Virus record (IMG/VR): IMGVR_UViG_3300025600_000018
Span: 7,629-71,628 of that record
DNA length: 64,000 bases
Reading direction: 5' to 3' (one strand)
Source of the DNA: a virus
Taxonomy: Duplodnaviria > Caudoviricetes
Shown: positions 6,222 through 45,025 of the stretch, one piece after another
How positions within the stretch are numbered: the first letter of the stretch is position 1
Layout of the letters: every line of letters starts with the position of its first letter
Notes under the pieces: generated by a model
Seen by the model: only the letters and a program-made list of their open reading frames with translations
Told to the model about the DNA's origin: nothing
Databases searched by the model: none
Program-made: the position numbers and the translations under genes

Positions 6222-6338
6222 AAAATAATTTTCCTCCTAAATTTTGTTTTCTCGTCTTGTTTGTTTTCTTCTTTTTATATTTTATTTAATATAAACTATG
6301 TAACTGTGTATGAAATTGTCATTTTATGATTATTTACG

Positions 6339-6383
6339 CACTACATATTGTGGGTTATGTTTATTTAATCACTATATATGGTG
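6339..6383. promoter_or_regulatory. Tandem NrdR boxes upstream of the replication operon
   Basis: CACTACATATTGTG (6339) and CACTATATATGGTG (6370), 31 bp apart; match acaCwAtATaTwGtg. Confidence 0.7.
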
Positions 6384-6428
6384 GTGTCCTTGCCCTACAA
6401 ATAGCCTTTAATATCTTATTCAATACTC

Positions 6429-8399
6429 TTAAACTTCCCTTCCTATCATTTTATTAAAATCATCTTCTGATATAATTGGAACTCCTAATTGTTGTGCTTT
6501 TTGATTCTTACCAGATGTTGAAGTTGTATCATTATTGATTAAAAATGTAGTGTTTTTAGATACGCTTCCTGATAACTTACCTTCAAGACAAATAATTAAA
6601 TCTTCCAGTTCATTTCTATTCTTAAAGGTAGTTACAGTACCAGTTACAACAAAAATCTTATCAAATAAACTTTCAAAATTTGGTGTTGATTTTTTCTGTG
6701 GTTTATTAATATTGAGAATATAAACTAATTCAAACCATTGTTTTTTATTATCCTCAATTTTAAACCAACCGTTTAAATTATCACTCATTATTTTTCCAAA
6801 ATCATCAAGACTAGTAAAATCAAATCCACCTAATATTACATTGTCAAATTCTTCCCAATTATATTGAAAGAAGTTTGCTATTGTTTTACAGGCTGATCTT
6901 CCTATTTGGGCAATTCCCAAAGAATAAATAAAGTTAGCCATATCCACATTTTTAGATTTCTCAATTGCTTCAATAAGTTTTTCATATGATCTCTTACCAA
7001 ATCCTTCAAGATTTATTATATTAACTTTGTACTGTTCTAGTTTGTAAATATCAGAGAATGTTTTAATAAATCCTTCAGCAATTAATTTCTCAAGCGTTGC
7101 CTCAGACAGTCCATCAATATTCATAGCTTCTCTTGAAACAAAGTGAGATAATTTACCTATTAGTTGTGCTGGACAGTTGGGATTATTACAAAATAAAAAT
7201 CTTGTATCTTTAGGTTTTTTAATGATATAATCATTTCCGCATGATGGACATTTCATATTAAGTTGATATGTACCAGTTTTATCTAAATTTTCATCTATTT
7301 GAGGAATGATCATATTAGCTTTATAAACCGAAATTCGATCTCCAACTCCAAATTCAAAATCTTCAAATATATCAACATTATGAACACTTGCTCTTGATAC
7401 TTCTGTACCATCAATTTCTACTGTATCAAATAATGCAGTTACAGAACCCATACCAGTTCTTGTTGTATTTGTTTCAATTCCTCTGAATATTGTTTCATAG
7501 CTATCGTCAAACCATTTGAAAGCATATAGGGCTTTGCTATGATGTCCTGTAAATCCTTGTAGTTTTCCGTAAGCGATATTATCATATTCAACAATCAAAC
7601 CATCAGTTGGATAAGGTAGAGTTTTAACATTATCTTCAAACCAAGACATTGACTGACTTAATGTTTCTTTATTTATTTCTATATAATGTACAACTTCAAA
7701 ACCAAGCAATCCTAAACGATGAAGTTGTAAACATTTACGAGATATTTTATCATCACAATTAACAATTCCAAATGCTTTAAATATTAACTTTCTTGATTTT
7801 GTAACATTTGCATCTAACTGTCTTACACTTCCTGATGCCAAATTCCTTGAATTTGCAAATGGTTCTTCACCTTGTAATAATAGTTCCTCATTAATTCTAT
7901 TAAACTCTTCAAATGTAACCAATCCCTCGCCACGAATTTCTAAATATCCTTTATAACTAATCGTCAAAGGTATATTTAAAAAAGTTCTAACAGTATGAGT
8001 AACATCTTCGCCATATTCTCCCCTACCTCTTGTAATTGCTTGAATAAATTTACCGTCATTATATTTTAAAACAATAGTTAATCCATCAAGTTTCCAAGAT
8101 AAAATACAAGGTTGATCTCCCATAAATTTTATAATATCATTTACATCTTTTGATTTATCGGCAGATAACATAGGCTCTGAATGTTTTACTTTTGTGAGAA
8201 ATGGAAGTATTTCACCTTGAACTTTTTGAGTTGGAGAAATAGAAAGTATACAATTAGTTCGTTTTTCTAACATTGATAATTCATCGAAGAGTTTATCATA
8301 TTGCTTGTCTGTCATTATTGGATTATCTAATGTATAATAATGATGAGATGCTTCATTACACAATTTCACCAATTCATGTATTCTTGAAATATCTGTCAA
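6429..8399 (-). CDS. ligA: NAD-dependent DNA ligase
   Basis: WKLDG adenylation motif, RGEG, DGLIV, AFKW, OB fold, CPSC...CNNPNC zinc finger, HhH, C-terminal BRCT. Confidence 0.95.
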   Translation of the reverse strand: MTDISRIHELVKLCNEASHHYYTLDNPIMTDKQYDKLFDELSMLEKRTNCILSISPTQKVQGEILPFLTKVKHSEPMLSADKSKDVNDIIKFMGDQPCILSWKLDGLTIVLKYNDGKFIQAITRGRGEYGEDVTHTVRTFLNIPLTISYKGYLEIRGEGLVTFEEFNRINEELLLQGEEPFANSRNLASGSVRQLDANVTKSRKLIFKAFGIVNCDDKISRKCLQLHRLGLLGFEVVHYIEINKETLSQSMSWFEDNVKTLPYPTDGLIVEYDNIAYGKLQGFTGHHSKALYAFKWFDDSYETIFRGIETNTTRTGMGSVTALFDTVEIDGTEVSRASVHNVDIFEDFEFGVGDRISVYKANMIIPQIDENLDKTGTYQLNMKCPSCGNDYIIKKPKDTRFLFCNNPNCPAQLIGKLSHFVSREAMNIDGLSEATLEKLIAEGFIKTFSDIYKLEQYKVNIINLEGFGKRSYEKLIEAIEKSKNVDMANFIYSLGIAQIGRSACKTIANFFQYNWEEFDNVILGGFDFTSLDDFGKIMSDNLNGWFKIEDNKKQWFELVYILNINKPQKKSTPNFESLFDKIFVVTGTVTTFKNRNELEDLIICLEGKLSGSVSKNTTFLINNDTTSTSGKNQKAQQLGVPIISEDDFNKMIGREV

Positions 8400-8411
8400 A
8401 TTTTCACTTCC

Positions 8412-8681
8412 TTAATTCAAATTTGGAATGCCAAACAATGTCACATTTCTACTTGTTTCATTATCATAAGATACACCACAAACAACAAGTCTATTTTGGT
8501 CAACTAATTCTGTGATTCTAGGTCTTGCAAAGTTGGGATCGGATTTACCTAGCTTGTGCATACATTCTCTTGCAGTCATGTTTCCATACGTTCTAAACGC
8601 ATCCAATATAACTTCTTGTCGTGTAGTCTTGTCCACTTTTATGTAACTGTCATGCCTTGTTTCTTGGGTAACTTGATTCAT
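8412..8681 (-). CDS. Small winged-helix DNA-binding protein
   Basis: MTARECMHKLG...ARPRITELVDQNRLVVCG wHTH-like pattern. Confidence 0.5.
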   Translation of the reverse strand: MNQVTQETRHDSYIKVDKTTRQEVILDAFRTYGNMTARECMHKLGKSDPNFARPRITELVDQNRLVVCGVSYDNETSRNVTLFGIPNLN

Positions 8682-8793
8682 ATTTTTGTACTCTCCTTTT
8701 CTATTGTTTTATATTAGCTATTTACTCACGTTTTATAAACCGAATAAAACATTTTATATCCATTTTCTTTATTGCACTGTAATATCAGCCATT

Positions 8794-9078
8794 TTAATTT
8801 TTATTCCAATCTAATTTTTGCCCACAATCAAAACAATATTTATTTCCTTTTTGTTTTGCAGAATATCCACACACAGGGCAACTTCCGTATCTTGTTTGAT
8901 TTACTAAATAAGTATTAACAACCTTTTTCCCAATCTGCTTTTCAAGTGCTTTGATTGCATTATCGCAATAATAGTTTAATTCTTCTTTTATTTCATATGA
9001 AGAATCACAAGGAAATTCTGCTTGTATTGCGTTAATACCTTTTATAATTTTTTCTATCTCGTCCATTTTGATTTCCAC
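8794..9078 (-). CDS. Zinc-ribbon hypothetical protein
   Basis: CPVCG...CFDCGQKLDW. Confidence 0.6.
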   Translation of the reverse strand: MEIKMDEIEKIIKGINAIQAEFPCDSSYEIKEELNYYCDNAIKALEKQIGKKVVNTYLVNQTRYGSCPVCGYSAKQKGNKYCFDCGQKLDWNKN

Positions 9079-9118
9079 TTCCTATCTGTTTAAAATTGGG
9101 ATTTCATGCACATTTTGA

Positions 9119-9164
9119 CACAACATATAGTGGTATGATTAATATGTAACCACTATATATGGTA
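9119..9164. promoter_or_regulatory. Tandem NrdR boxes upstream of the genes leading to ligA
   Basis: CACAACATATAGTG (9119) and CACTATATATGGTA (9151), 32 bp apart. Confidence 0.65.
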
Positions 9165-10939: not shown

Positions 10940-10969
10940 TTTCTTTAAACTGTGATTGAAATTCTCATT

Positions 10970-11689
10970 TTAATCTCTTAATTTGAACAATTTTTCTATT
11001 TTTATTATCTTATTACGATTGTTTAAATGTGTCTTAACTTCTTGCTGCCATATACATTCAAAATTATCAGGTGCATTATATTCTGATATTAAAACTATAT
11101 TATTCTTTGATAACTCTCTACACCAATCCCAAAATTCATCATGATTGAAATTATTTGTTATATATTCTGTCGAGTTAGCATAAGGAGGATCACAGTATAT
11201 AACACAATTTTTTATTTTGTTTTTATCAAACTCTAAATAATTCTTATTAGCGAATTTAATATTTAACAACTTAGGAATTTGTTCTTTAAGATTTCTAATT
11301 GATTCATCACAATAGTTTCTTATTGTCCCTATTTTTGTATTGACTTTACCTGCATATCCACCAAAATATTTAGAATTATAACTAGCACAAAATCCGACTA
11401 GAGCAACCATATGTAATGGGTATTTTTCTTTATTATCTCTTATCTCAACATATGTATCTTTCGTGATATCAGGAGGTGGAATCCACCCATTTTGTAATTC
11501 TTTAAATAGTGCAATTAATTCTTTATGCATGTCATTTCCAATGCGTTTTTCACATTTTATTTTATCAATCATATTAGCACCACCAACAAATGGCTCAAAA
11601 TAAATCTTTACATCATTTTTATCTATATAACTTTGAATTATTGGTGCAATATATTTAGATAGTTTGTTTTTACTTCCAATATATTTCAA
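10970..11689 (-). CDS. DNA adenine methyltransferase (Dam/D12 class)
   Basis: KYIGSK, EPFVGGAN, IYCDPPY. Confidence 0.9.
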   Translation of the reverse strand: MKYIGSKNKLSKYIAPIIQSYIDKNDVKIYFEPFVGGANMIDKIKCEKRIGNDMHKELIALFKELQNGWIPPPDITKDTYVEIRDNKEKYPLHMVALVGFCASYNSKYFGGYAGKVNTKIGTIRNYCDESIRNLKEQIPKLLNIKFANKNYLEFDKNKIKNCVIYCDPPYANSTEYITNNFNHDEFWDWCRELSKNNIVLISEYNAPDNFECIWQQEVKTHLNNRNKIIKIEKLFKLRD

Positions 11690-11824
11690 GTATACAATTT
11701 CACCTTTCCTTAATTTTTATTTTGATTTATCAAAACTTTAATAGCAAAACTAATTTTTGCGTATTTTGTTTTGATACAATTAGCTATACTTTTCACCTTC
11801 TAAATTGTGTTCAAAACTGTCCTT

Positions 11825-12910
11825 TTAACCAAATATTTTATCTATTACTGTAGTTAAATAATCTTGAGTTAAAACAAAACTATTATCTTCTATTTGTTTT
11901 CTTTTCAAGTTTTGTATAAAATTCAAGAAATAAATACTATCAACTCCAACTAATTGATCTTCTAATACATAAATATCTTTTAAATTTAACTCACTTATTT
12001 GAAAAGACATTTTTACAAATTGACCAGCATTAATTTGCCATCCACGTTTAATAAACTTACGTATTCTTACAAGACTGCAAATAGGATACTTAGAACCAAT
12101 ATAAAACAATTCTTTGTTTAAAATAGATTCCAACGCTCTTTGATTTAAAACTGTACCAGTAGCAAATGTCCAATAATTTGTTGCATGAACAAAATCATAA
12201 TTTTTATGTATTACATCAACGTCTCCGTAAAAACGAACTACAATTTGAATCTTATTAGAAAGAGTAATGGCATTTGTAGAAAGAAAAATTGGTTTATATT
12301 TGTTTTCAGGTGATTTTTCTTCTAGACTATCAGAAGATATTTCATCTCCATCACTAATAGCATCTAAATATGCATCAATTGAATAATCATTTTTATCTGC
12401 TATTTCATCACTATCTTCGGCTACTCCATCTGAATTAACCATTACTTTAATTCTGTCTGGTAGTGTGTTTAAAAGCATTCCAGATATATTTAAATATGCT
12501 GATTTATTTTCGTTTTCGTTTTCATAATTCCATCCTTTTATTTCTGAATACGAAATATCTTTATAATTAAATGCAAAACTTGACAAAGATTTTTCATTGT
12601 TTTTCCACTTTTCAACATCATCACCATCAAGTACCCAAGCATGAAGAGGTTTACCAAGTTTATTCATTTTTCCTTCGTTGTTTTTATTAAATTGGTTTGC
12701 GTAGTATTCACAAATTGCCTTTAAACTTTCTTTGGTTTTAAAATAAATATCAAAATCATTTACCGTTTCATTTAATAACATTGAAGTGATCGCTCCACCA
12801 GAAATAATAATATCAGATTTAATTTTTTGTACTAATTCTTTATCCTCAATACTATTTAACCAGTCATTAATTTTTCTACTAACAACAGCATTAATTGTTT
12901 TTGCTTTCAT
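11825..12910 (-). CDS. Phage nucleotidyltransferase-fold protein
   Basis: ISGGAITSML...NDFDIYF (GG..DxD) signature; target unknown. Confidence 0.55.
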   Translation of the reverse strand: MKAKTINAVVSRKINDWLNSIEDKELVQKIKSDIIISGGAITSMLLNETVNDFDIYFKTKESLKAICEYYANQFNKNNEGKMNKLGKPLHAWVLDGDDVEKWKNNEKSLSSFAFNYKDISYSEIKGWNYENENENKSAYLNISGMLLNTLPDRIKVMVNSDGVAEDSDEIADKNDYSIDAYLDAISDGDEISSDSLEEKSPENKYKPIFLSTNAITLSNKIQIVVRFYGDVDVIHKNYDFVHATNYWTFATGTVLNQRALESILNKELFYIGSKYPICSLVRIRKFIKRGWQINAGQFVKMSFQISELNLKDIYVLEDQLVGVDSIYFLNFIQNLKRKQIEDNSFVLTQDYLTTVIDKIFG

Positions 12911-14633: not shown

Positions 14634-14668
14634 TTATATAATCCTCCAATAATCATAAAATAATTCTT

Positions 14669-14914
14669 TTATATTAACTTACTTATTTCAACAAATTTAT
14701 CCACAGCAGCACCATAAATTTTATTGTAGCAAGTTAAACATAAATCATATTCTACTCGTCTGCTTGATACTGGTTCTAAACTTTCTCCAACTTTTTGAAC
14801 GTATCCATAAACCGGAAGATGATATTTGTTTTCTGCTATATTACACAATGGATTAAATTCATATGCACGACCTTCAATTTTGTTTCCACAACAATCACAA
14901 TTTACTATTGTCAT
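14669..14914 (-). CDS. Zinc-ribbon hypothetical protein
   Basis: CDCCG...DLCLTC. Confidence 0.55.
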   Translation of the reverse strand: MTIVNCDCCGNKIEGRAYEFNPLCNIAENKYHLPVYGYVQKVGESLEPVSSRRVEYDLCLTCYNKIYGAAVDKFVEISKLI

Positions 14915-15192
14915 ATTTTCACCTCATTTCTTTGTTTTGATATTAAATATTCTTTATCCACAGAAATTGTAATAGATTCCAATACTGTTTCATCATCGTT
15001 AAAATTTAAAACAATCTCTTTTGCATTAAGTCCAGATATTAAATTTGAATACTTATTTTTATGTAATTTCAAAACATAATAACTTTCATCAACATTAACT
15101 TTTAAAGAGAAATGCACACCATCTGTTTGAATATCTTTATCTTTTAAAGCTATATTTTCTACTTTACCAGTAGTTAATTTACGACTTTTCAT
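14911..15192 (-). CDS. Hypothetical protein
   Basis: ORF overlapping both neighbours by 4 nt. Confidence 0.5.
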   Translation of the reverse strand: MKSRKLTTGKVENIALKDKDIQTDGVHFSLKVNVDESYYVLKLHKNKYSNLISGLNAKEIVLNFNDDETVLESITISVDKEYLISKQRNEVKI

Positions 15193-15701
15193 ATTTTATC
15201 TCCATTTCTATGTTTTAAATAATCTTCTCTAAATATTTCATACTTTTTAGAACCATAGTATTTTCCATCTATTAATTTACAATCTTTTAAAAATATTCCT
15301 ACAATCCTACCACCATATTTTTTTAATAATTTATCATATGTACTCTCAATTGGATTTCCAACGACAACTCCAAATACTATCTTTCGGAAGTTAAACTTGA
15401 TAAATATTTCGCTAATGCATTTAAAAACGTCTCTTCCAAAAATAATTTTATTATCACTAAAGTTTATAATTTGTAAATAATGTACATCCATACTATCTCT
15501 ACAAATTCCATATTTAATATATCCCAAGACATTATTATCTTTATCAATACTTACAAACTCATGTGCAGCCCACGTGCTTTCTATAGCTTTATATTTTTCT
15601 CGATATGAACCCATATCATAAAATTTATATTTTTCATCAAATGTAATATTAGCAAATAATAACTGTAATTTTTCTTCGTATTTACAAGCTATATCCAACA
15701 T
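15189..15701 (-). CDS. GNAT (RimJ/RimL-like) acetyltransferase-fold protein
   Basis: FNFRKIVFGVVVGNP...GGRIVG...DGKYYGSKKYEI pattern. Confidence 0.6.
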   Translation of the reverse strand: MLDIACKYEEKLQLLFANITFDEKYKFYDMGSYREKYKAIESTWAAHEFVSIDKDNNVLGYIKYGICRDSMDVHYLQIINFSDNKIIFGRDVFKCISEIFIKFNFRKIVFGVVVGNPIESTYDKLLKKYGGRIVGIFLKDCKLIDGKYYGSKKYEIFREDYLKHRNGDKI

Positions 15702-15953
15702 ATTTTCACCTCCAAATCCATCACAAAATTATACTTTCAAACACAGTAGTTAAATTCTTCATAAAACACACATTTTAAATTCTATTTACACGTACCTCCA
15801 ATAAATAAAACCTTTATTTCACCACAGGTTACACATTCTACTTTTCCATCATTATTTAATTGATAAAACTCATCACTACCACAATTACATTTTACTGTCT
15901 CTCTGCCAATATACTTTTTAAACTGAACAATTTCCCTTTGGTTTTTTGTCAAT

Positions 15954-16133: not shown

Positions 16134-16336
16134 TTTTAATCACCTTCTTTATCAAAATCTGCTTGTGATTTACCTACGAACTTTACTTTATCATTTTGAT
16201 TTATATATTCTATAATTTCATTAATTTTTTCTCTATTTTGCAATATTACTGTTTGCATTGCTATTCCTCTTAGTTCTTCATACTTACATTTTAATTTTTC
16301 CATGAATCCTCACTTTTATCAAAACATTAGTTTTAA

Positions 16337-34951: not shown

Positions 34952-35164
34952 ATAAATACACCTCTGTTATTGTTTTTGCTTGATATGGATGTTATCAATT
35001 CTCTTTGTGCTTCTTGCATCGTATCAGAAGAGAAAAGAAATACTCCATTTAATATAACTTCAATATGCTCCATGACTTGTTTATATATTATATTATTTGC
35101 CATTATTGTTATCCTCCTGTTATTATATTTTAACTGTTTTATTGTGCTTGAAATTAAAGTTTTG

Positions 35165-35668
35165 TTATAAGTTGACTCTGTCTATTTCATTTTTTAATAA
35201 AAACATAAAGGTGTAAAATTTATAGTCATTTGTTATACTCAATATAAAGTATTTTTTATTATCCTCATAACGGCTTTTGATTTTATAATAATCTGGAAAA
35301 CCCTGATAATAAAAACTATCATCTCTACTTAAAAATAAACCATCTTGTATTAAAATTAAATCTTTATCATTAATTATTGCCATCTCATAACCATAAAAAT
35401 TTTCTCTAAATACCATTTTGCAGCCCTTATAATTCATAAATATAACTGGATTTGTTATGCTTTTACTCGTATGCTCTCCAATAACTGAATGATGCTCATT
35501 AACAAAATCATAATACTTTTCATAATCTTCCTCTTGATTGTTATAAAATAAAGGCAATATTGTATCTCTCCAAAAAATAATATTATCCCAAAATGCCTTT
35601 TCATAATACATTTCTTTCTTTGGTATATTTGCCATTGCCCAATTTTGCAAATTCAATTCCTTGCTCAT
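35165..35668 (-). CDS. Hypothetical early protein
   Basis: 167-aa ORF. Confidence 0.55.
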   Translation of the reverse strand: MSKELNLQNWAMANIPKKEMYYEKAFWDNIIFWRDTILPLFYNNQEEDYEKYYDFVNEHHSVIGEHTSKSITNPVIFMNYKGCKMVFRENFYGYEMAIINDKDLILIQDGLFLSRDDSFYYQGFPDYYKIKSRYEDNKKYFILSITNDYKFYTFMFLLKNEIDRVNL

Positions 35669-35996: not shown

Positions 35997-36220
35997 CGTG
36001 TTATACCTACCCTTCTCAATATTTAAACTTAACTCCACAATAATTAAAATACCTATCATTTATATGTTCTTTAAGTTTTTCTTCTAATTCTTCACGTTCT
36101 ATTTGTGTTAATGGTTTTGGTTTATCCGCTTTTGATACATAATCTTTTTTGTTTCTATTCCTCTTCAATTAAATCATCCTTTCTATTATGCTTTAATTAT
36201 GGTTAAATCTGCTGTTTTAA

Positions 36221-36523
36221 TCAATTATTAATTCTCCATAGCAAATGATTCTCAACCAATTCTTTACCTCCTAAATCAGAACAATCTATTATATTAAGTT
36301 TAACCTGCTCTAAATAATATTTATCGTTCATCTTTTCAGTATAATTATAAAACTCAAAAGGTTTATTTCCATTTTTATTTCTACTTTCTGAATGATATAA
36401 CCATGCTTTTAATTGTAGTTTAGTTGTTAAACAACATCCATTATAATCATTATTAAAAATTTTTCTAACTTCTTCAATCGTTGTTAAACCGTTATCTGTT
36501 ATACTCTTATTCAAGATTTTCAC
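36221..36523 (-). CDS. Hypothetical early protein
   Basis: 100-aa ORF. Confidence 0.5.
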   Translation of the reverse strand: MKILNKSITDNGLTTIEEVRKIFNNDYNGCCLTTKLQLKAWLYHSESRNKNGNKPFEFYNYTEKMNDKYYLEQVKLNIIDCSDLGGKELVENHLLWRINN

Positions 36524-36556
36524 CCTTTCTGTTATATCAAAATCGCTGTTTTGTTA

Positions 36557-36869
36557 TCATTGGACTAATTGAATATCATCTCTAATTTTATTTAATTGCT
36601 CTATTATTCCATCTTGATTCTTACAAATAATCCTTGTTCCTTCTGCTTTTATATTATTTAATTCTCTAAAAGAAATAGAAAAACTTTCAGGACACCGATA
36701 TCCACTAGTAACGCTAATCCAATATTTTTTATTTAATGCTTTGCTTATAGCTACAATATTCATAGGATCAAATAAACTGGGTATTCCTGCTTGATTAAAT
36801 TCATCGAATCCTACATCAAATAGTCTTTTTCTAATTTTTAAGTATTTACCGTCATAGTTTTCCGCCATG
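36557..36869 (-). CDS. Hypothetical early protein
   Basis: Likely start MAEN at 36869 after GAGG-TATAACAGC. Confidence 0.5.
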
Positions 36870-36885
36870 CTGTTATACCTCACTT

Positions 36886-36910
36886 TTATTATTTTAGTTG
36901 TGTTATACTA
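36886..36910. repeat. 25-bp intergenic repeat, copy 1
   Basis: TTATTATTTTAGTTGTGTTATACTA, identical at 39488-39512; variant at 41379-41399. Confidence 0.8.
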
Positions 36911-37405
36911 AAATGCCACATCTACTCTATTATCATAAACTGGATTATACATTTTTAATAGTTCAACTATATCATCATGTTTTTCTTTGATCTCTGCAAT
37001 TGCATTTACAATATCTATTGGTACTTCATATACTCTTGATAAATCTTGTAAATAATCTGATCTGTTATTGAATCCCATATCTAAATACTTTTTAACTTTT
37101 AGATAATCTTCTTCAAAAGGAATGGAATTAAAACGATCAACTAATGACTTATAACGATCTGATTCTATACATTCAATAGCTTTTGGAATTAGTCTATCAA
37201 GTTCGGCAGATATATAGCTTTTAAACTCATCCATTATCTTTGTACCTGTTGTTAGTTCTGTTATGTTATAGTTTCTTCCCATTTTGCGTATACCCAATTT
37301 TAACTCTGGATAATCAGCTAAGATAAATTCATTTCCTGTCACTTGCTGCTTAAACTCTTTCCAAGCTACACAATACTCAATTTCTTTCCCTATAATATAC
37401 TTCAT
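36908..37405 (-). CDS. Hypothetical early protein
   Basis: Likely start MKYII at 37405 after GAGG-TATAACACA. Confidence 0.5.
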   Translation of the reverse strand: MKYIIGKEIEYCVAWKEFKQQVTGNEFILADYPELKLGIRKMGRNYNITELTTGTKIMDEFKSYISAELDRLIPKAIECIESDRYKSLVDRFNSIPFEEDYLKVKKYLDMGFNNRSDYLQDLSRVYEVPIDIVNAIAEIKEKHDDIVELLKMYNPVYDNRVDVAF

Positions 37406-37471
37406 TGTGTTATACCTCAATCTTATATTTTATTTGTGTTGGTTCAAAATTGCTCTTTTATGCACTGTTCG

Positions 37472-37666
37472 TTATGCCCTACACTCTTTAAATTTTATAC
37501 TTAAAATTTTATAACCACACCTATCTGCTTCTTCATACATAATTTCTATTGCTTGTTTTTTACTTTTTGCCCAAGCACCACAAATTGTATTATAATCCTT
37601 ATCACTAAAATCAAAGTGAGCCTCAAAACTATATAATTTATCTTTTGTCATTGTCATTTTACGCAC
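37472..37666 (-). CDS. Hypothetical early protein
   Basis: 64-aa ORF. Confidence 0.45.
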   Translation of the reverse strand: MRKMTMTKDKLYSFEAHFDFSDKDYNTICGAWAKSKKQAIEIMYEEADRCGYKILSIKFKECRA

Positions 37667-38484
37667 TACCTTTCAAATTATTATTTTGTTATAAGTCTGT
37701 TATTTCTTTTAATATACTTTTATTAATTAAATTAACAAGGTAACACTGAAACGGGATAGTTAATTTAGATAAATCATAATTTTTTAACATTTCCTCGTAC
37801 ATCTTTCTTACTTTATTTTCTGTTATAATTTTATCAGGGTATTGATAATGTATAAATTTACGCATTTATAAAACCACCCATTCTTATTAATATTTTAAGT
37901 TCCACCAAGCCTGCTATCGTATCAAGATTTTCCATTTGTATTTTCATATCCTCAGTGTTATCGCTCCCGGCTTTGCAGATTGCATAATTCAACTGTTATA
38001 CCCCACTGTTAATCTGTTATTCAACACTGTCTATATTTTGTAAATAATGTTGTAAAGTTTTTTGAACCCTGCTAAATGCTTCAATTTGTATTCTACCTTC
38101 TTTTGTTTTCTTACACAAAAATTCATAATTGTGTGCTATTTCTATAGCAAATTCAAGTGTATTTTTGTCAAGATTCAATGCTGCAATTGACATTTAAATC
38201 ATTTCCTTTCTTAATAAAATCACCGTTTCGTATTAAGTGCTGCTGTTATAGATTAATCATCACAAAAACATAGCTCATTTGATTTATTACATTTAGGACA
38301 CCTATAGTCATCTAATTCATTTTTATTTAATTCTATACTTTCATTTTTTATTTTATCAACTAACTTTTGCATTTTTAATTTATGATCTTTATGTTTGCAA
38401 TAAATTTCCATTGTTATTACCTGCTTTCTACTTATTTTAATTGTTATAGCTATTTAGTTCAAAACCAATATTTCATGTACTCTG

Positions 38485-38739
38485 TTATAGGTTAAAGCTA
38501 TTACTTTTAAAATAATTTTCAATTGCATAAACTTTATCCCATGTTGATTCTTTTGCTCTGCCTCTGCCCTTTGATAACCATACTAATGTACTGCCTTTAA
38601 ATTCTCTGCCGTCTACAGTACCAAAAGAACGGATCATATCAATATTTCTGCGCCATATTAAATAATTACCTTCATCATCTATTATTTTAACTGTTTTGAA
38701 CTCTTGATTTAATATGACATTCATTATAAAACACTCCAT
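38485..38739 (-). CDS. Hypothetical early protein
   Basis: ORF downstream of the promoter at 38773-38801. Confidence 0.5.
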   Translation of the reverse strand: MECFIMNVILNQEFKTVKIIDDEGNYLIWRRNIDMIRSFGTVDGREFKGSTLVWLSKGRGRAKESTWDKVYAIENYFKSNSFNL

Positions 38740-38772
38740 TTGTATTAAATTTTTATCTCTTAATCTATTAAT

Positions 38773-38801
38773 AGTATATGCTTATATATTGCCCTTGTCA
38801 A
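38773..38801 (-). promoter_or_regulatory. sigmaA promoter
   Basis: TTGACA-17-TATACT. Confidence 0.75.
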
Positions 38802-38866
38802 TGCTTTTTATACCTATTTCTAAATATATTTTATATTAACTATCTACTTATGTATTTTAGCTTAAT

Positions 38867-39271
38867 TTATGATACTAAGCCAAAACTAATCCTTAATGCT
38901 CTATCAATATTCATAATAATTTCATCACCTAAATGCCCTATTTTTTGCTTGAGTCTGCTTTTATCAATTGTCCTGACTTGCTCCAATAGTACCACTGAAT
39001 CACTCTGTAAACCGTTTGTTACTGCATCTAGTAATATATGCGTAGGCAATTTTGCTTTGCTTATTTGGCTTGTTATGGCGGTTGCAATGACTGTCGGTGA
39101 ATACTTGTTCCCAATATCATTTTGAATTATTAATACTGGTCTTAAACCGCCTTGCTCTGATCCTGCATTACCTGATAAATCAGCAAAGTATATATCACCA
39201 CGCTTGATATTTTGTATCTGTGCTACTCGTATTGTGGGTTGTGCTGCTGTTAATGTATTTGTGTTAATCAT
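38867..39271 (-). CDS. mazF: MazF/PemK (EndoA/NdoA-type) endoribonuclease with no adjacent MazE
   Basis: [41 protein letters not shown]...[17 protein letters not shown]. Confidence 0.93.
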
Positions 39272-39383
39272 TTTGTTGTTATCCCCTTTTTATTTATTTT
39301 TTAATATCACCTCTTTACTTCCTTTTATTTTTAAGAGGTTGCTGGCGTTTATTTTCCTGTCATTCCTTCCGGCTTAAATTATA

Positions 39384-39473
39384 TTACTTACATTTTTTAC
39401 AACTTCTGATACTATCACAATGTTTTTTTGAAACTTTAACTTTTGCTCCGCAATTTGGACAAATTTTAATCAT
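39384..39473 (-). CDS. 29-aa Cys-rich micropeptide upstream of mazF
   Basis: GGAGG SD; MIKICPNCGAKVKVSKKHCDSIRSCKKCK. Confidence 0.5.
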   Translation of the reverse strand: MIKICPNCGAKVKVSKKHCDSIRSCKKCK

Positions 39474-39487
39474 TAAATTTACCTCCA

Positions 39488-39512
39488 TTATTATTTTAGT
39501 TGTGTTATACTA
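39488..39512. repeat. 25-bp intergenic repeat, copy 2
   Basis: Identical to 36886-36910. Confidence 0.8.
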
Positions 39513-40439
39513 TTGTGCTATTCCAAAAAGGTGGTTTATATCCTCTTCACTTGCTATATTTTCGCTTTGTTCTTCCTGCTCTGTGTTATACTTTTCTTTC
39601 AAAACATTATAAAGCTGTCTAATATAAGTAGATATAACCGTACTATCATTAAATTTCTTATATTTTGTGCTTTTATAAATTTGCCATTGTGGAGTATTAA
39701 ATTCTTCATTCATTAAGATACTATATAATGTTGTTCTGATCCATCCAATAGTTTTGATTGGAATTTGAATATCATTTCTTTTGAATAGCAGATATAAAGT
39801 ACATTCTTGATCATAATAACTTGTAACTTCAATAAATTCATTATTTGCCCTTTTATGGTTTAAAAAATCTGTTTCCGCTTGATTTAAAATAGCATTAAGT
39901 TTATCTGCTGCTATTTTTTGTTTTGCTTGTTCTTCTTCATCTCTTTGTTTGCGTTCTGCAATATCTTTTAATTTGCTTTTATCATAAAATATTTGCCTTG
40001 CTGTTATAAGCTGATTAATATATTGTTCTGATTCGCCTTGCTGTTTACACATTTCTATTTCATGCCGTCCAATAAATAAATTATTTTCAAGTTTTAATTC
40101 AATGGTATTTTTAAAGATAGTATAACTGATAGTTTTTGCAAGTGCTGTATATTCTGTTGTAAAATATTCATCGTCTATTAGTTCCTGATCTGCTCTTAAT
40201 TGATAGATATATGAAAAAATTCCATCATAATTACCATATAAATCTATATAATCTGAATAATCCATATTGGGTTTAATGTCGTTTGCATTGACAAATAATG
40301 ATCTAAAATTTTCATTGTTTGTTATGTCTGCAAGATTAATCAGATTTTGTGGATAATACATTGCTTTGTTATCATTCAGATAGATACATTTTTGACGTAT
40401 AATTGTATAACTGTCTTTGTTAATATCTTTTAATTGCAT
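39510..40439 (-). CDS. Hypothetical early protein
   Basis: Likely start MQLK at 40439 after AGGAGG-TTTAACA. Confidence 0.6.
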   Translation of the reverse strand: MQLKDINKDSYTIIRQKCIYLNDNKAMYYPQNLINLADITNNENFRSLFVNANDIKPNMDYSDYIDLYGNYDGIFSYIYQLRADQELIDDEYFTTEYTALAKTISYTIFKNTIELKLENNLFIGRHEIEMCKQQGESEQYINQLITARQIFYDKSKLKDIAERKQRDEEEQAKQKIAADKLNAILNQAETDFLNHKRANNEFIEVTSYYDQECTLYLLFKRNDIQIPIKTIGWIRTTLYSILMNEEFNTPQWQIYKSTKYKKFNDSTVISTYIRQLYNVLKEKYNTEQEEQSENIASEEDINHLFGIAQ

Positions 40440-40494
40440 TGTTAAACCTCCTATAATTGACGGTTTAAGGATCACCGACAACCTTATTTTGATT

Positions 40495-40827
40495 TTATTG
40501 TAATTTTTGTATACCTTTTATATTTTTCATAATTTCAATAGCTTTTTTAAATCTTTCAGCTTGATAATTATTATTTTTATCAATATAATTTTGCATATCT
40601 TTAATTGTTTTTTGTCCATATCCAATAGCTGCTAAAATTGTTTGAGCTTCTTTGACTTCTAATGCTTTTAAAGTTGATATATTAACTTGACATCCATTAT
40701 AACCGCCAACCTGACACAATGGCAAATATCCATCATTCATGTTTTTACCTATATTCCAAATAGTATAACCGTATGGAATTTCTGTTACAACCTCAAAAAT
40801 ATGTTCCCCTTTTATAATATTCTCCAT
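40495..40827 (-). CDS. Conserved hypothetical early protein
   Basis: IWNIGKNM...YLPLC motif; SD GAGGG-AATAACA. Confidence 0.55.
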   Translation of the reverse strand: MENIIKGEHIFEVVTEIPYGYTIWNIGKNMNDGYLPLCQVGGYNGCQVNISTLKALEVKEAQTILAAIGYGQKTIKDMQNYIDKNNNYQAERFKKAIEIMKNIKGIQKLQ

Positions 40828-40867
40828 TGTTATTCCCTCACCTTTTATTAATTTTTGATTATGGTTA

Positions 40868-40896
40868 ATTATATCATCTTATATTTTGTTTGTCAA
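40868..40896 (-). promoter_or_regulatory. Consensus sigmaA promoter
   Basis: TTGACA-17-TATAAT. Confidence 0.8.
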
Positions 40897-40953
40897 GTGT
40901 TTTGTTATAAACTTTTATATTATTTGTATTGTCTGTTGCTGTTATGGTTTTTA

Positions 40954-41358
40954 TTATACAATTTCATTAATATATTGAAATAGTTCTATACTTGCTCGAT
41001 CCGTTACTTTATTGTTATAGTTTATTTCTTCATTGATTAGCCATTGTTTAAGCATCTCAGCAATCCTCAGTTCATTATATTCTGTAATCGTAAAGCCGTT
41101 TGAAGGTGCAAAGAATAAGCAATCATGTATATTTTTATCGTTTGTTAATTCCCTACCATTAATAATTTCAATCCCAATTTCTCCACCATTATCCCATAAT
41201 TGATAAAACATATAATTGTATTTATTATAATTGAATGAATATTCACGCCTTAAAATTAATGTCTTGCCGTTATCTATTTCAGCAACCTTTTTTAAACTTA
41301 CTACTTCAAAACCAAATTCTAAAATTTTTGCTATGTTATTCAATTTTTCTGTTGTCAT
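40954..41358 (-). CDS. Hypothetical early protein
   Basis: Likely start MTTEK at 41358 after GAGGG-AATAACA. Confidence 0.55.
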   Translation of the reverse strand: MTTEKLNNIAKILEFGFEVVSLKKVAEIDNGKTLILRREYSFNYNKYNYMFYQLWDNGGEIGIEIINGRELTNDKNIHDCLFFAPSNGFTITEYNELRIAEMLKQWLINEEINYNNKVTDRASIELFQYINEIV

Positions 41359-41471
41359 TGTTATTCCCTCAGCTTTCATATTTTAGGTTGTGTTATACTC
41401 TGTATGCTATTATGTATTTGTAACGGCTTTTTGATCTTGCAGAAGCTTTAAACTGCTTGTGTTATACTGTT

Positions 41472-42137
41472 TTAGTTAGACATCATATTATATATTGCTT
41501 GTGTTTCATATCTCAAAATTCCCTTGCCGTCTGCTGTTAAGCCGTCCCACATTGCACCCAATAAACCTTTTAATTTTGGTGACTCTTCCATTTCTTTTCT
41601 CACGCTTTGACTTGTTGAATATCCCATGATCTCATAATTTTGTTGTAATTCTTCCAAGCTGTTATATATTTCATTTTTGCCAAGTTCTTTAACAACTTTA
41701 TATACAATTTTTTTGACTGCATCATCATCTGGATCAATTAATACAATTGGTTTTATCTCTGTTTGTGCAATAACATCTTTAAAATATCTTTTATCAAAAC
41801 AACTGTAACGGCTTTCCCTCATTATCATACCATTTTTTTCAACTGGTGCTGTGTATGAATTATCCTCCAAGTCAATCCAACCTTTATATATTGCCATTTC
41901 TGTATTCGGTAAAATTCTTGTACCACTTTTGGATCTCTTGCCTTTTGATACAAAGTATATTACAATACTAAAATCATACTGTGCGTAACTGCTTGTTATC
42001 ATACTAGTAAATTTTGCTTGCCTCACATAAGGAAAACCAAATTCGCTTATACCTGTTATTGTTATTTTATCCCCATCTTGTAAAATGTTTATTGCCTCTG
42101 CTGCTCTTTGTAATCTGCTTGTAGATGTATTTGTCAT
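41472..42137 (-). CDS. Hypothetical early protein
   Basis: Likely start MTNT at 42137 after GGAG-TAATAACA. Confidence 0.55.
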   Translation of the reverse strand: MTNTSTSRLQRAAEAINILQDGDKITITGISEFGFPYVRQAKFTSMITSSYAQYDFSIVIYFVSKGKRSKSGTRILPNTEMAIYKGWIDLEDNSYTAPVEKNGMIMRESRYSCFDKRYFKDVIAQTEIKPIVLIDPDDDAVKKIVYKVVKELGKNEIYNSLEELQQNYEIMGYSTSQSVRKEMEESPKLKGLLGAMWDGLTADGKGILRYETQAIYNMMSN

Positions 42138-42227
42138 TGTTATTACTCCATTCATATTTTATTATTTTAGCTATTAATCTTATATATTGCTTTTTTATTG
42201 GAAGCATAACCAACAACTGTTATTGAT

Positions 42228-42539
42228 TTATATTACCGTTACACCTCCATATGTTACTACGCTATTCCCTAACATTCCTATTGTATCACCTTTAACTGTC
42301 ATCTCTTGTAAACATGCATTAAGCTGTTCTGGTGTCAATGTAAGTGGTAATGCTCCAAAACTTAAATGATAAAAATAGCATCCTTTAAAATTCATTTTGC
42401 CTTTGCCTGTTGTTTTGTCAAAAATTCCTGTTTTGTTATCAGATTGAATAATAAATTGATTTTTTCCGTTAACATCCATTACTAAAAAATCTTGTTCCTT
42501 CCTCATTTTACCTAATTTTAAAAATACATAGTTTCCCAT
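42228..42539 (-). CDS. Hypothetical early protein
   Basis: 103-aa ORF with GGAG SD. Confidence 0.5.
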   Translation of the reverse strand: MGNYVFLKLGKMRKEQDFLVMDVNGKNQFIIQSDNKTGIFDKTTGKGKMNFKGCYFYHLSFGALPLTLTPEQLNACLQEMTVKGDTIGMLGNSVVTYGGVTVI

Positions 42540-42580
42540 TTTAAAAACTCCATTCTTATATTAATTTTATATTGTTGTTA

Positions 42581-43051
42581 TTATCTGATATATAATCCAA
42601 TTCCCTTAATATCTCCAAATTGAAAAGCTGTTAAAGGTTCAATAGAAAATTCGTCTTGATCTGGTTCTGGTTCTTCATCCCATTTTATATATACATTATT
42701 ATCTTCAATTTTTACAATTGATCCATAAGAATAAGGAAACATTGCACCCCAGTAACCTATAATTTTTGATCCAATTTCTGTTTTATTATCTGGTAAAACT
42801 GTTTTTTGAGATAACATATTTAATAATTTTTGTTTATGCTCTTGCAATTCTTCTAATCTCTTTTTGATCTCATTACAACTATTAACTTTTAATTTGTTCG
42901 CCTGTCTACTGTTTCCAAGTTCTTTATTTTCTTCAATCTCCATTTTCAAAACTGTTATACTGTTTTTATACTCTATTGATTTTTTAGCAATTAATTTATT
43001 AGTTTCAATAATTGACTCGTTTACTCTTTTAACCATTTCATTTGATAACAT
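42581..43051 (-). CDS. Hypothetical early protein
   Basis: Coiled coil followed by an SH3-like GYWGAM...VYIKWD segment. Confidence 0.5.
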   Translation of the reverse strand: MLSNEMVKRVNESIIETNKLIAKKSIEYKNSITVLKMEIEENKELGNSRQANKLKVNSCNEIKKRLEELQEHKQKLLNMLSQKTVLPDNKTEIGSKIIGYWGAMFPYSYGSIVKIEDNNVYIKWDEEPEPDQDEFSIEPLTAFQFGDIKGIGLYIR

Positions 43052-43127
43052 TGTAAATTACCACGCTTTCAATTAATTTTATATTACTGTTATTGCCTTA
43101 TGTTTATTAGTATTTGCCATCTCTAAT

Positions 43128-43156
43128 ATTATATTCTCATTGGATGAATTTGTCAA
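43128..43156 (-). promoter_or_regulatory. Consensus sigmaA promoter
   Basis: TTGACA-17-TATAAT. Confidence 0.8.
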
Positions 43157-43210
43157 TACTTTTATTGATTTATTTTATATTAACTTTATTGTTATTGTTT
43201 TGCCGTTTTG

Positions 43211-43414
43211 TTATTGTTTATCTCTGTTTTGTTGCAATGTCTGAAGTGCTGTTGTTATGCCTCTGTTATGCTCTGCTGCGTGGCTGCTGTTGGTGTTATT
43301 GCTGTTAATGTTAACTATTAGGATGATAACGAGAATGAAGGGGATCACATATAATGCAGTGACTGTTATTGATAATATGCGATTGAATATTATTAGGGAT
43401 TTTGATTTTTTCAT
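43211..43414 (-). CDS. Small membrane-anchored/secreted peptide
   Basis: Basic N-terminus, hydrophobic stretch, polar tail. Confidence 0.45.
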   Translation of the reverse strand: MKKSKSLIIFNRILSITVTALYVIPFILVIILIVNINSNNTNSSHAAEHNRGITTALQTLQQNRDKQ

Positions 43415-43462
43415 AGTGTTTTACTTCCTTTTATATTTTATTTGTTTTGTGGTATCTGGTGT

Positions 43463-43660
43463 TTATTGGTGGGAAATTTGATACTCTTCAATATATTTTT
43501 GTGCATCCGCTTCAGTTCTGCAAAATTTACCTATACCACAATAATAATAATTTTCATTGTCAACACTGATTAATACTTGAGCATAAAAATTGTAAATATT
43601 ATCTACTGGAAAATGTAATTTTTCAATATTGAATTTTCTTTTTATATCAACTGTATTCAT
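43463..43660 (-). CDS. Hypothetical early protein
   Basis: YYYCGIGKFC motif. Confidence 0.5.
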   Translation of the reverse strand: MNTVDIKRKFNIEKLHFPVDNIYNFYAQVLISVDNENYYYCGIGKFCRTEADAQKYIEEYQISHQ

Positions 43661-43725
43661 TTATAAAACCATCTTTCTAATAATATTTTGTTGGTGTCTG
43701 GTGTCAAAATTGGCTTGCTGTTATG

Positions 43726-44019
43726 CTAATTATGAATATTCCATTTTTGAAGCCATGTATCAGATACAATAAAATGTTTTTTAATCTTGCAAATTGTAGC
43801 TTCTGTTAAGTCAATAATATCAAAATATTTTTGTGGTATAACGTGCTTTAATCCTAATTTTTCAAGTCTATTTTTACGCTTGTTATAATATCTATTATCT
43901 ATTGTTATACATCCGCAAAACTGATTTAAAAACGTTCCTATATAACATTTATGCCCGTATGCATCTGTTATTCCAATGTCATATATCGCTTTTATGCCGT
44001 CATCTTGAATTATTTTCAT
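43726..44019 (-). CDS. Hypothetical early protein
   Basis: SD GAGG-TAATAACAAA. Confidence 0.5.
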   Translation of the reverse strand: MKIIQDDGIKAIYDIGITDAYGHKCYIGTFLNQFCGCITIDNRYYNKRKNRLEKLGLKHVIPQKYFDIIDLTEATICKIKKHFIVSDTWLQKWNIHN

Positions 44020-44058
44020 TTTGTTATTACCTCACTTCTATATTATTATTTTATTTGT

Positions 44059-44469
44059 TTATGCTATTTTATCATAATTCCGGCTATCTCTTATAACCTT
44101 TACATTTTCCAGTGATTCAAAAGTGTAAATTGATTTTTCTCCATAGTAAACAGATGCTTTTATAAAATATGGTATTAGATTAACTTGTATTTTTTTACCT
44201 TGACTGTTATAGATATTTTCGATATCATTAAAGGATTCAATATAAATGGAGCATTGTGTATAATTATAAGCTGTTAATACTTCATGAATTGTTATATCCT
44301 TTTGAAGTTTAGGAAATATCATTGTATTAATTGTTGTCATCCTTGTATCAATTTTTTGTGTTATTGCTTCAATTATTTCAGTTGATGTAATATAATCTTT
44401 ATTAATATTTTGTAATAGGTTATTAGCTACAATTGTATCTATTTGTATTTTTGTTTGTTTCATTGTCAA
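44059..44469 (-). CDS. Hypothetical early protein
   Basis: 136-aa ORF. Confidence 0.5.
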   Translation of the reverse strand: MTMKQTKIQIDTIVANNLLQNINKDYITSTEIIEAITQKIDTRMTTINTMIFPKLQKDITIHEVLTAYNYTQCSIYIESFNDIENIYNSQGKKIQVNLIPYFIKASVYYGEKSIYTFESLENVKVIRDSRNYDKIA

Positions 44470-44563
44470 TCAATTCCATTTCATATAAATTTTAGTTTCT
44501 GTTATTGCAATTTTCACTTTGTGTTATGTCAATTCAACTTCAATGTATTTTATTTTGACTTTA

Positions 44564-44791
44564 TTAAATAAACTTAAATTTTGCAAATTGTCTATTATTA
44601 TTTACATAATTATTAAAATCTTTTACAGTGCCATTACCAAAATTAAAAGCCTTTTTGATTTTATCCTCAGTCCATTTTATTATTACATTATTGTATTTTT
44701 TGTCAGTTTCAATTGCTATTAATTTACTGTTATTCATTGATATCAATCCTTTACTGTTAGATATTTGTAATTGTTTAATACAGCTTGACAC
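44564..44791 (-). CDS. Hypothetical early protein
   Basis: Start uncertain (probably MNNSK ~44737). Confidence 0.4.
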   Translation of the reverse strand: MSSCIKQLQISNSKGLISMNNSKLIAIETDKKYNNVIIKWTEDKIKKAFNFGNGTVKDFNNYVNNNRQFAKFKFI

Positions 44792-44925
44792 ACTGTAAAT
44801 GCTTGATCCTTTGTTATGTTATACAAATCAGATACTATGTTTTGAGATACAGCTAAACAATTTTTATTTGCTATTGCCTTAACTGTATTATATTGTTTAG
44901 TTGTTATTGTTAATGATTTTTTCAT
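44743..44925 (-). CDS. Hypothetical early protein
   Basis: GGAGGTG SD. Confidence 0.5.
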   Translation of the reverse strand: MKKSLTITTKQYNTVKAIANKNCLAVSQNIVSDLYNITKDQAFTVCQAVLNNYKYLTVKD

Positions 44926-45025
44926 TTTTACACCTCCATTCCAGTCTGTTCAAAATAGCGTTTTTGTTATGAATTTGGAAGCATAACCTTTTTTGTTATT
45001 CTGTTATGCTTCCATTCTGTTATTG

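Follow-up and report, generated by a model that had tools for sequence, protein, structure and literature searches.

An 18-bp palindrome at gene junctions of SPbeta-like phages: probably a protein docking and crossover site, with a six-base centre that may serve as an address

The 64,000-nucleotide stretch of DNA analyzed here (hereafter, the window) comprises bases 7629-71628 of a 71.6-kb virus contig (IMG/VR record IMGVR_UViG_3300025600_000018; G+C 27%), and it carries numerous copies of an 18-bp palindrome, WYRAAA-N6-TTTYRW, at the junctions between its genes. Our analyses suggest that this motif is probably a protein docking and crossover site and not the operator of a repressor, and we regard the chances as about even that same-centre palindromes of co-resident phages act as swap points, that is, as addressed crossover joints. 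Addressed exchange is seen in relatives only; for the window phage, we infer both the binding of a protein to the site and the exchange, the latter because variant relatives of this phage were not found. As judged from its genes, the window phage is a distant SPbeta-like phage, because it encodes an MrpR/SroF homologue and a YonO-type RNA polymerase and has the yopP-yopQ-yopR gene order. In a tblastn comparison of the window with SPbeta, only the DNA polymerase, the primase, the C5 methylase, MrpR, YonO and the exonuclease match. The minus strand encodes the genes up to ~47 kb, and the plus strand those from ~48.8 kb onward.

The pattern was scanned against whole-window shuffles and against AT-matched, per-segment dinucleotide shuffles of the non-coding DNA (11.1 kb with 9-nt padding; 1000 shuffles). 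The whole window contains 28 matches versus 6.2 expected from the whole-window shuffles. Non-coding DNA holds 25 matches versus 0.66 expected, with a maximum of 4 in the 1000 shuffles, and coding DNA holds a single match versus 4.7 expected, which is a depletion in genes. The existence of the motif, claimed in a preliminary description of this DNA, is thus borne out, and so is the 6-bp spacer: enrichment is found at N6 only, and the counts for N5, N7 and the reversed pattern do not exceed background (apart from a slight N5 excess in the window contig, 4 versus 0.7 expected). The information content of the palindrome drops past 6 bp per arm. As to the copies listed previously, 24 within 6310-44967 and the one at 63875 are exact, the sites at 13142, 31916 and 15805 (the last inside a small called open reading frame) have one mismatch each, 32181 has three mismatches, and an exact copy at 32726 had been omitted. 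One-mismatch copies number 20 versus 10.9 expected, so that perhaps nine further ones are real. The statement that the palindrome punctuates most accessory-gene boundaries was too broad, as a strict copy is present at 24 of the 75 co-directional junctions between 6.2 and 45.1 kb, about one third.

The described placement between a stop codon and the next Shine-Dalgarno sequence was confirmed. On the sense (minus) strand, the usual order is stop codon, site, nCACAATTTA, ribosome-binding site and start codon, and the shared flank nCACAATTTA with the ribosome-binding site behind it follows most copies. The stop codon abuts or often overlaps the left arm, the ribosome-binding site begins 0-15 nt past the right arm, and the median distance from the site end to the start codon is ~21 nt. 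A reversed flank had been noticed at 18698; AATTGTGT indeed stands upstream there, and likewise at 16877 and 27937, which makes three such copies. Most copies occupy a gap from stop codon to ribosome-binding site in which a promoter is absent, and strong promoters in the window are found at 45.9, 43.2, 40.9, 38.8, 33.1, 23.5, 19.8 and 18.0 kb. No terminator-like sites were found on the minus strand between 6 and 46 kb, and promoter hexamers are lacking in the copies. The block of integrase, SroE and MrpR genes at 18.9-24.2 kb is copy-free and bracketed by the copies at 24285 and 18698. Strict copies include the following (strand unassigned; sequences as arm-centre-arm, marked where they are given in sense):

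6310-6327: junction palindrome, sense (minus) ATAAAA-TGACAA-TTTCAT; mid-gap, 88 nt before the start of 5013-6221
9090-9107: junction palindrome, sense ATGAAA-TCCCAA-TTTTAA; start of 8794-9078 11 nt on
10956-10973: junction palindrome, sense TTAAAA-TGAGAA-TTTCAA; over the stop codon of 10970-11689
11811-11828: junction palindrome, sense TTAAAA-GGACAG-TTTTGA; over the stop codon of 11825-12910
14655-14672: junction palindrome, ATAAAA-GAATTA-TTTTAT; over a stop codon, next start 21 nt on
15723-15740: junction palindrome, TTGAAA-GTATAA-TTTTGT; start of 15189-15701 21 nt on
15761-15778: junction palindrome, TTAAAA-TGTGTG-TTTTAT; second copy in the same gap as 15723
16319-16336: junction palindrome, TTAAAA-CTAATG-TTTTGA; abuts a stop codon, next start 15 nt on
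16633-16650: junction palindrome, ACGAAA-CCATTG-TTTTGT
16877-16894: junction palindrome, ATAAAA-AGCATA-TTTCAT; reversed flank, AATTGTGT upstream
17863-17880: junction palindrome, ATAAAA-GAATGT-TTTCAT; between the sigma-A promoter 17966-17938 and a ribosome-binding site
18698-18715: junction palindrome, TCAAAA-CTGGTG-TTTTAT; reversed flank, first copy past the downstream end of the integrase-SroE-MrpR block
24285-24302: junction palindrome, ATAAAA-TACAGA-TTTCGT; last copy upstream of the SLT-integrase-SroE-MrpR block
27282-27299: junction palindrome, ACGAAA-CGAATA-TTTTAT; 1 nt past a stop codon, next start 20 nt on
27937-27954: junction palindrome, ATGAAA-TGAACC-TTTTAT; reversed flank
28503-28520: junction palindrome, TCAAAA-GTAGTA-TTTTAT; over the end of 28511-30460
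30491-30508: junction palindrome, ACAAAA-TAATCT-TTTTAA
31615-31632: junction palindrome, ATGAAA-GACCGA-TTTTAA
32726-32743: junction palindrome, ACAAAA-TGGCTA-TTTCGA; absent from the earlier list
35148-35165: junction palindrome, ACAAAA-CTTTAA-TTTCAA
36537-36554: junction palindrome, ACAAAA-CAGCGA-TTTTGA
37444-37461: junction palindrome, ATAAAA-GAGCAA-TTTTGA
38214-38231: junction palindrome, ACGAAA-CGGTGA-TTTTAT
38459-38476: junction palindrome, ATGAAA-TATTGG-TTTTGA
44950-44967: junction palindrome, ACAAAA-ACGCTA-TTTTGA; copy closest to the divergence region
63875-63892: palindrome on the plus-strand arm; after an intrinsic terminator, before a plus-strand gene

The window motif is, on sequence comparison, a local form of ATAAAA-N6-TTTTAW, which occurs 38 times in SPbeta and 38 times in BUCT082, with 5 and 7 matches, respectively, for the reversed control. 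We counted intergenic copies against shuffled expectation in twelve mutually related genomes that had been picked through matches to MrpR or YonO. Each of the ten MrpR-encoding phages examined, whose hosts belong to Bacillus, Geobacillus, Psychrobacillus, Staphylococcus, Mammaliicoccus and Clostridium, shows enrichment of the palindrome at N6 spacing:

Window contig: 26 observed, 0.8 expected
SPbeta: 29 observed, 1.7 expected
BUCT082: 31 observed, 0.8 expected
Clostridium phage c-st: 24 observed, 3.0 expected
Psychrobacillus phage Perkons: 37 observed, 1.1 expected
Geobacillus virus E3: 37 observed, 1.9 expected
Bacillus phage Thrax5: 12 observed, 0.9 expected
Bacillus phage pW2: 19 observed, 1.1 expected
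Staphylococcus SPbeta-like phage: 7 observed, 1.1 expected
Mammaliicoccus phage phi127: 25 observed, 1.6 expected

The palindrome is at background in the two YonO-positive, MrpR-negative phages (Enterocloster PMBT24, 1 versus 0.9; Thomasclavelia TR-TP1, 2 versus 0.5). Apart from the slight N5 excess already mentioned, no enrichment of N5, N7 or the reversed pattern is seen in any of the ten genomes. In pW2, E3 and phi127, the ribosome-binding site follows the right arm at a distance of 0-5 nt. A full-text search, outside whose reach Brady et al. 2023 and Lazarevic et al. 1999 lie, found no description of the dispersed palindrome, and the only repeat described on these phages that we found in the literature is SPBRE (PMC10516654).

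The preliminary description called the motif a palindrome, which holds for the consensus and not for the individual copy, as the outer arm positions are complementary no more often than by chance. In the window, a G at arm position 3 is never opposite a C at position 16 (0/8), and arm complementarity is no better than with the right arms permuted among the sites, even with G-U wobble counted. Arm covariation is absent in all ten genomes. Because the arms vary independently, the motif is best understood as a duplex DNA site with two half-sites for a dimeric protein and not as a hairpin; with outer arm positions free of covariation in ten of ten genomes, the hairpin or cruciform reading is rejected. 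At two orthologous loci of pW2 and Thrax5, the flanks are homologous and the centre is reverse-complemented (TCAACA/TGTTGA; ACCGTG/CACTGT), and at one SPbeta/BUCT082 site the orientation is inverted with respect to the backbone. These flipped-centre loci, at which the flanks keep their orientation, are pW2 107/Thrax5 113281, pW2 12028/Thrax5 98579 and SPbeta 99497/BUCT082 93625. An element acting at the RNA level (a hairpin, a processing or a translation signal), or a promoter for the YonO-type polymerase, would fit the constant placement of the site, 0-15 nt before the ribosome-binding site, and its sense-biased flank, and the window does encode such a single-chain RNA polymerase (55677-58415). 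We nevertheless consider this very improbable, given the missing covariation and the cores flipped in place at orthologous loci. Furthermore, YonO is absent from five palindrome-bearing genomes and present in both that lack the palindrome, and a transcription start would land inside the ribosome-binding site. On phyletic grounds, a YonO promoter is thus rejected, and for a host-type promoter, the hexamers and the spacing do not fit.

The evidence for exchange comes from the comparison of SPbeta with BUCT082, which have 51% of their DNA in common, in blocks averaging 89.5% identity. In these two phages, 23 palindromes have an identical centre, and they are perfectly collinear over ~50 kb. At 8 of the 23, the exact identity run is only 18-25 nt long, both neighbour genes are unrelated and the flanks are at random-level identity; at ~6 further ones, one neighbour is 86-100% identical and the other unrelated. 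An unbiased search restricted to DNA outside the BLAST blocks turned up nine exact matches of >=20 nt, and six of them are same-centre palindromes. A single-gene slot between the centres ACGATA and GTAATT, for example, holds a 131-aa gene in SPbeta and an unrelated 125-aa gene in BUCT082. Block ends in SPbeta lie <=12 nt from a palindrome centre in 7/62 cases, compared with 10/382 gene ends (p = 0.005). Within genomes, the centres avoid each other: all 28 centres of the window are distinct, and in the ten genomes near-identical pairs number 30 versus 58.4 expected (z ~ -3.8). In each of the ten genomes, the G+C content of the centres exceeds that of the non-coding DNA around them (0.43 versus 0.25 in the window).

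We propose the following model. Each copy would be a docking site on duplex DNA for a two-fold symmetric protein, with half-sites (A-Y-R-A-A-A in the window, ATAAAA in most relatives) held exactly six bp apart, and the six-base centre, different at every junction, would serve as an address. As the site lies between the stop codon and the ribosome-binding site, the unit of exchange would be the site together with the ribosome-binding site and the gene. Related phages with a common backbone would keep their centres in order, and recombination at same-centre copies of two co-resident phage genomes would replace the genes between them with gene order intact, whereas recombination between different junctions of one genome would be disfavoured. 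The exchange could be site-specific, with tyrosine-recombinase geometry and a 6-bp overlap requiring identity, or it could be short-homology recombination focused by the bound protein. If true, the model would explain how large temperate Firmicute phages maintain a fixed gene order despite the turnover of dozens of small accessory genes, and the sites would be the natural equivalent of the heterospecific recombination sites that have been engineered. SPbeta serves as a model phage in the laboratory, and together with phi3T in Bacillus subtilis it can be used to probe the idea directly.

Several observations weigh against crossover at addressed sites. The reciprocal comparison of block ends, BUCT082 versus SPbeta, gave 6/63 versus 15/340, which is not significant (p = 0.12), and ~85% of the SPbeta/BUCT082 block ends lie away from palindromes. 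In the second close pair, pW2/Thrax5, only 0-1 of 76 block ends are at palindromes. No recombinase family tracks the palindrome, and the only perfect co-occurrence is that of the catalytically dead MrpR. Six conserved bp per arm is short for a tyrosine-recombinase arm, and in the window phage the arms are degenerate. Exact-protein look-ups identified three other assemblies of the window phage, all 100% identical. The phage is present in the samples ERZ27294291, SRR3989260 and JGI 3300002839. No closer relatives were present in IMG/VR protein, genome and metagenome scans, and 18-mer scans returned chance matches only. The relatives of its SroE reach at most 46% identity, and their contigs have no centres in common with the window; this includes the nearest distinct relative, an 82.9-kb JGI contig, in which the SLT-integrase-SroE-MrpR order recurs and 21 kb contain nine palindromes with degenerate arms. 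Finally, in pW2, E3 and phi127 a few copies overlap the -35 element of a host-type promoter or abut it, which looks regulatory.

The last point leads to the reading that the site is purely regulatory, which we consider possible but rather doubtful. According to it, a dimeric DNA-binding protein docked at every copy, for which an SroE/YopQ-like second repressor of ParB/DndB fold is one candidate, would silence or time the long early operons by roadblock or promoter occlusion, as with stoperators or KorB operators, and gene swaps would be a by-product of a short conserved sequence. The dyad-symmetric, independent half-sites agree with this, as do the copies at -35 elements and the location of copies within polycistronic units that lack terminators and depend on a few perfect sigma-A promoters. 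The lysogen-expressed block at 18.9-24.2 kb contains no copies and is bracketed by them, a second-repressor role has been reported for SroE, and yopQ transcripts occur in lysogens. However, neither the retention of the centre at each locus amid unrelated genes nor the repulsion of centres within a genome is predicted by regulation. SroE/YopQ was detected in eight of the ten palindrome-bearing genomes and is absent from Thrax5 (12 copies) and pW2 (19 copies), as judged by tblastn and the PF14072 DndB profile, and there is no known binder. These two phages, with palindromes and without a DndB-like protein, weaken SroE/YopQ as a universal binder.

Three window proteins have to be considered as partners of the site:

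19905-20825, minus strand: MrpR/SroF-family protein with a dead tyrosine-recombinase fold; Pfam MrpR_N_CB and MrpR_C_cat; best solved relatives are the MrpR/YopR structures PDB 8A0A and 8BJ6; HxxR motif absent
20818-22050, minus strand: SroE/YopQ-like protein (DndB/ParB-Srx-like), candidate site binder; absent from two palindrome-bearing phages
22516-23439, minus strand: XerC-like tyrosine recombinase in the SPbeta yopP (sroD) position, candidate catalyst; full R-K-HxxR-H-Y set

The order XerC-like integrase, DndB/ParB-like protein and MrpR-family protein equals the SPbeta order yopP-yopQ-yopR (alias sroD-E-F), and an intact tyrosine recombinase adjoins the SroE and MrpR genes in the window as well as in distant relatives. 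The enzyme at 22516-23439 had been described as intact, and its alignment to XerC-like 4A8E agrees, with the Arg, Lys, His-x-x-Arg, His and Tyr residues all kept. Similarly, the protein at 19905-20825 is, as proposed, a degenerate recombinase-fold protein and a true MrpR/SroF homologue. In a specific version of the crossover model, which we rate as unlikely, a phage tyrosine recombinase would recognise the common arms and carry out natural addressed cassette exchange, with strand exchange between same-centre copies only; co-resident phages would thereby swap accessory and anti-defence genes, slot by slot and with the order kept. The candidate enzyme would be the recombinase in the YopP/SroD position, perhaps paired with the dead MrpR-fold protein like XerC with XerD.

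The preliminary description had offered, as one of two models, an integron-like array of single-gene cassettes inserted or excised by the XerC-like enzyme. The cassette aspect finds support in SPbeta/BUCT082, in which centres are kept in order while flanking genes are replaced; the integron aspect does not, as folded sites of the attC type and a single attI are both absent, and the XerC-like enzyme is at most a candidate catalyst. An integron-like or Xer-module system within one genome, in which the enzyme excises genes as circles and inserts them at any copy, would be compatible with the nearby intact recombinase, the 6-bp centre and the many single small genes between copies, yet we give it very little credence. 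Every centre in a genome differs, and the centres avoid resemblance. For Cre, Flp, lambda Int and XerCD, a mismatch of the centre blocks strand exchange, and the different, mutually dissimilar centres would therefore block exchange between different copies of one genome. Instead of a folded attC, there is an 18-bp site whose arms do not covary; the attI/Pc arrangement is absent, and the integrase gene is located mid-array, in the yopP position. Its best solved relatives are XerC-like, XerA and XerD proteins (E 1e-24 to 4e-19), IntI4 reaching only 1e-9, and the same integrase type is present in phages without the palindrome.

The other model of the preliminary description, a genome-wide operator network of the MrpR-like dead recombinase at 19905-20825, is very improbable in our judgment. 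When all predicted proteins of the twelve genomes were clustered, MrpR was the sole cluster present in 10/10 palindrome-bearing and 0/2 palindrome-lacking genomes; this co-occurrence is suggestive only, because the genomes are related and were picked through MrpR or YonO matches. The recombinase-like geometry of the site would also suit such an operator, and the phi3T box contains ATAAAA repeats (bioRxiv 10.1101/2025.11.27.690993). However, SPbeta has ~29 palindromes, and all ten peaks of MrpR chromatin affinity precipitation and sequencing (ChAP-seq) are at SPBRE, with none reported at the palindromes (PMC10516654). We re-derived SPBRE from the upstream regions of the published MrpR targets as ATACAAAWAATATGTAT, which is unlike the palindrome. 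SroF of phi3T binds, as a monomer, an asymmetric box of 24-26 bp with a twin A-tract core (bioRxiv 10.1101/2025.11.27.690993). Operators of this type are long asymmetric monomer boxes (about 15-26 bp) on or beside sigma-A promoters of early operons, whereas the palindrome has an 18-bp dyad consensus with an unconserved centre and most of its copies are away from promoters. Furthermore, the repressor boxes vary by immunity group, and the palindrome is constant across genera.

The window has, in addition, its own box, a second repeat (ACAAn)TAAWATAAA(A) with 27 sense copies versus 6.25 expected in non-coding DNA and a single antisense copy. These boxes flank or lie in perfect sigma-A promoters at 45.9, 43.2, 40.9, 38.8, 33.1, 19.8 and 18.0 kb; sense copies are at ~45927, 43169-43181, 40913, 38829, 33073, 33040, 22179, 19843, 17913, 17196, 9560, 52488 and others. 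Because the box is oriented, has a twin A-tract and stands at sigma-A promoters, it makes a better operator candidate than the palindrome and is likely the operator of the MrpR-like repressor; the probable target of the 19905-20825 protein is thus the oriented TAAWATAAA box and not the palindrome. Two repeat families that were merged in the first reading can thus be told apart, the junction palindrome and an oriented, likelier operator box. The twin A-tract core of TAAWATAAA resembles the phi3T SroF box. A box like the phi3T SroF operator (TTAGAATAAAAATAAAATTAGTGG) is also located directly after the palindrome at SPbeta 113663 and 132746 and at the BUCT082 counterparts; such a TTAGAATAAAAATAAAATTAGTGG-type box is found in SPbeta although the phage's own repressor uses SPBRE. 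A third repeat, (T/C)ATAACA(G/C/A), is present in the non-coding gaps of window 36000-45100 (GTATAACA, 6 versus 0.7 expected; CAATAACA, 7 versus 1.0), often just before start codons, in a promoter-rich, palindrome-poor segment.

Among known systems, the engineered heterospecific lox and FRT sites of Cre and Flp come closest to the addressed crossover joints. In these, like-centred sites pair, resulting in cassette exchange with order and orientation kept. The likeness lies in identical arms with site-specific centres, which in the palindrome are distinct, over-dispersed within each genome and common in order to relatives. Different cargo at the same centre and position is seen in SPbeta/BUCT082 and not at the pW2/Thrax5 block ends. 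The differences are that the palindromes are natural, with 20-40 sites per genome, that their arms have 6 bp rather than 13 bp, and that catalysis is putative. The 6-bp central region, with enrichment at N6 only, corresponds to Xer/dif sites, whereas two conserved 11-bp arms were not found, and we take the arms to be unlike Firmicute dif. The pdif sites of the dif modules on Acinetobacter plasmids are XerC/XerD sites that flank accessory genes in varied contexts (PMC6449649). They resemble the palindromes as numerous recombinase-type sites with a 6-bp centre flanking accessory genes, but pdif consists of two different 11-bp arms resembling chromosomal dif and used by the host Xer, and the palindrome arms are short, symmetric and phage-borne.

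Promoter-early stem-loops (PeSLs) of T4-type phages, at which genes are replaced between relatives (PMC2839356), are likewise short repeated intergenic elements in plastic small-gene regions of large phages. A PeSL is a sigma-70 promoter plus a terminator hairpin, and PeSL copies recombine through their homology; the palindrome copies have neither a promoter nor a G+C-rich hairpin, and each has its own centre. SPBRE and Phi3TRE are dispersed intergenic boxes of the same phage family, and the family of their binding protein is encoded in the window. However, they are long, asymmetric, immunity-group-specific, located at promoters and present in about ten copies, whereas the palindrome is symmetric, cross-genus and mostly off promoters, with 20-40 copies. 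The stoperators of cluster A mycobacteriophages (PMC9283540) also occur as dozens of copies in short intergenic gaps across operons, and a possible stop of read-through in the lysogen would be a further likeness. Stoperators lack symmetry, follow the direction of transcription and are the same as the immunity operator, whereas the palindrome core is symmetric, flipped in place at orthologous loci and different from SPBRE.

Further observations concern other repeats and the gene content. Before the palindromes at 6310 and 9090, a longer inverted repeat CCAC(T/A)ATATGT(T/A)GTG is found in sense (window 6340-6400 and 9110-9150). PMBT24 has a different, fully conserved 17-bp palindrome, TTAAAAWTWAATTTTAA, with 10 intergenic copies versus 0.9 expected; these precede ribosome-binding sites or stand just upstream of -35 elements, and MrpR and SroE are absent from this phage. 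At the divergence of both arms of the window (45863-48798), there is a gene-poor stretch of ~3 kb with repeated units containing TAGGAGAT. Pfam matches in an identical assembly identified a Gad2 family protein, a D12-class adenine methyltransferase and a T4_Y16D-like protein (window 11825-12910, 10970-11689 and 18006-18299), whose genes stand among the small genes split by palindromes; the Gad2 family is presumably anti-Gabija. A set of RNA-handling genes comprises, at 24918-27261, a CCA-adding/poly(A) polymerase-family enzyme with an HD domain and an adjoining RlaP nucleotidyltransferase, and, on the opposite arm at 59566-60987, a beta-CASP metallo-beta-lactamase nuclease. The block 53741-59224, which encodes a CoiA-like nuclease, the YonO-type RNA polymerase and a 270-aa protein, shows 31-53% identity to Bacillus phage BUCT082.

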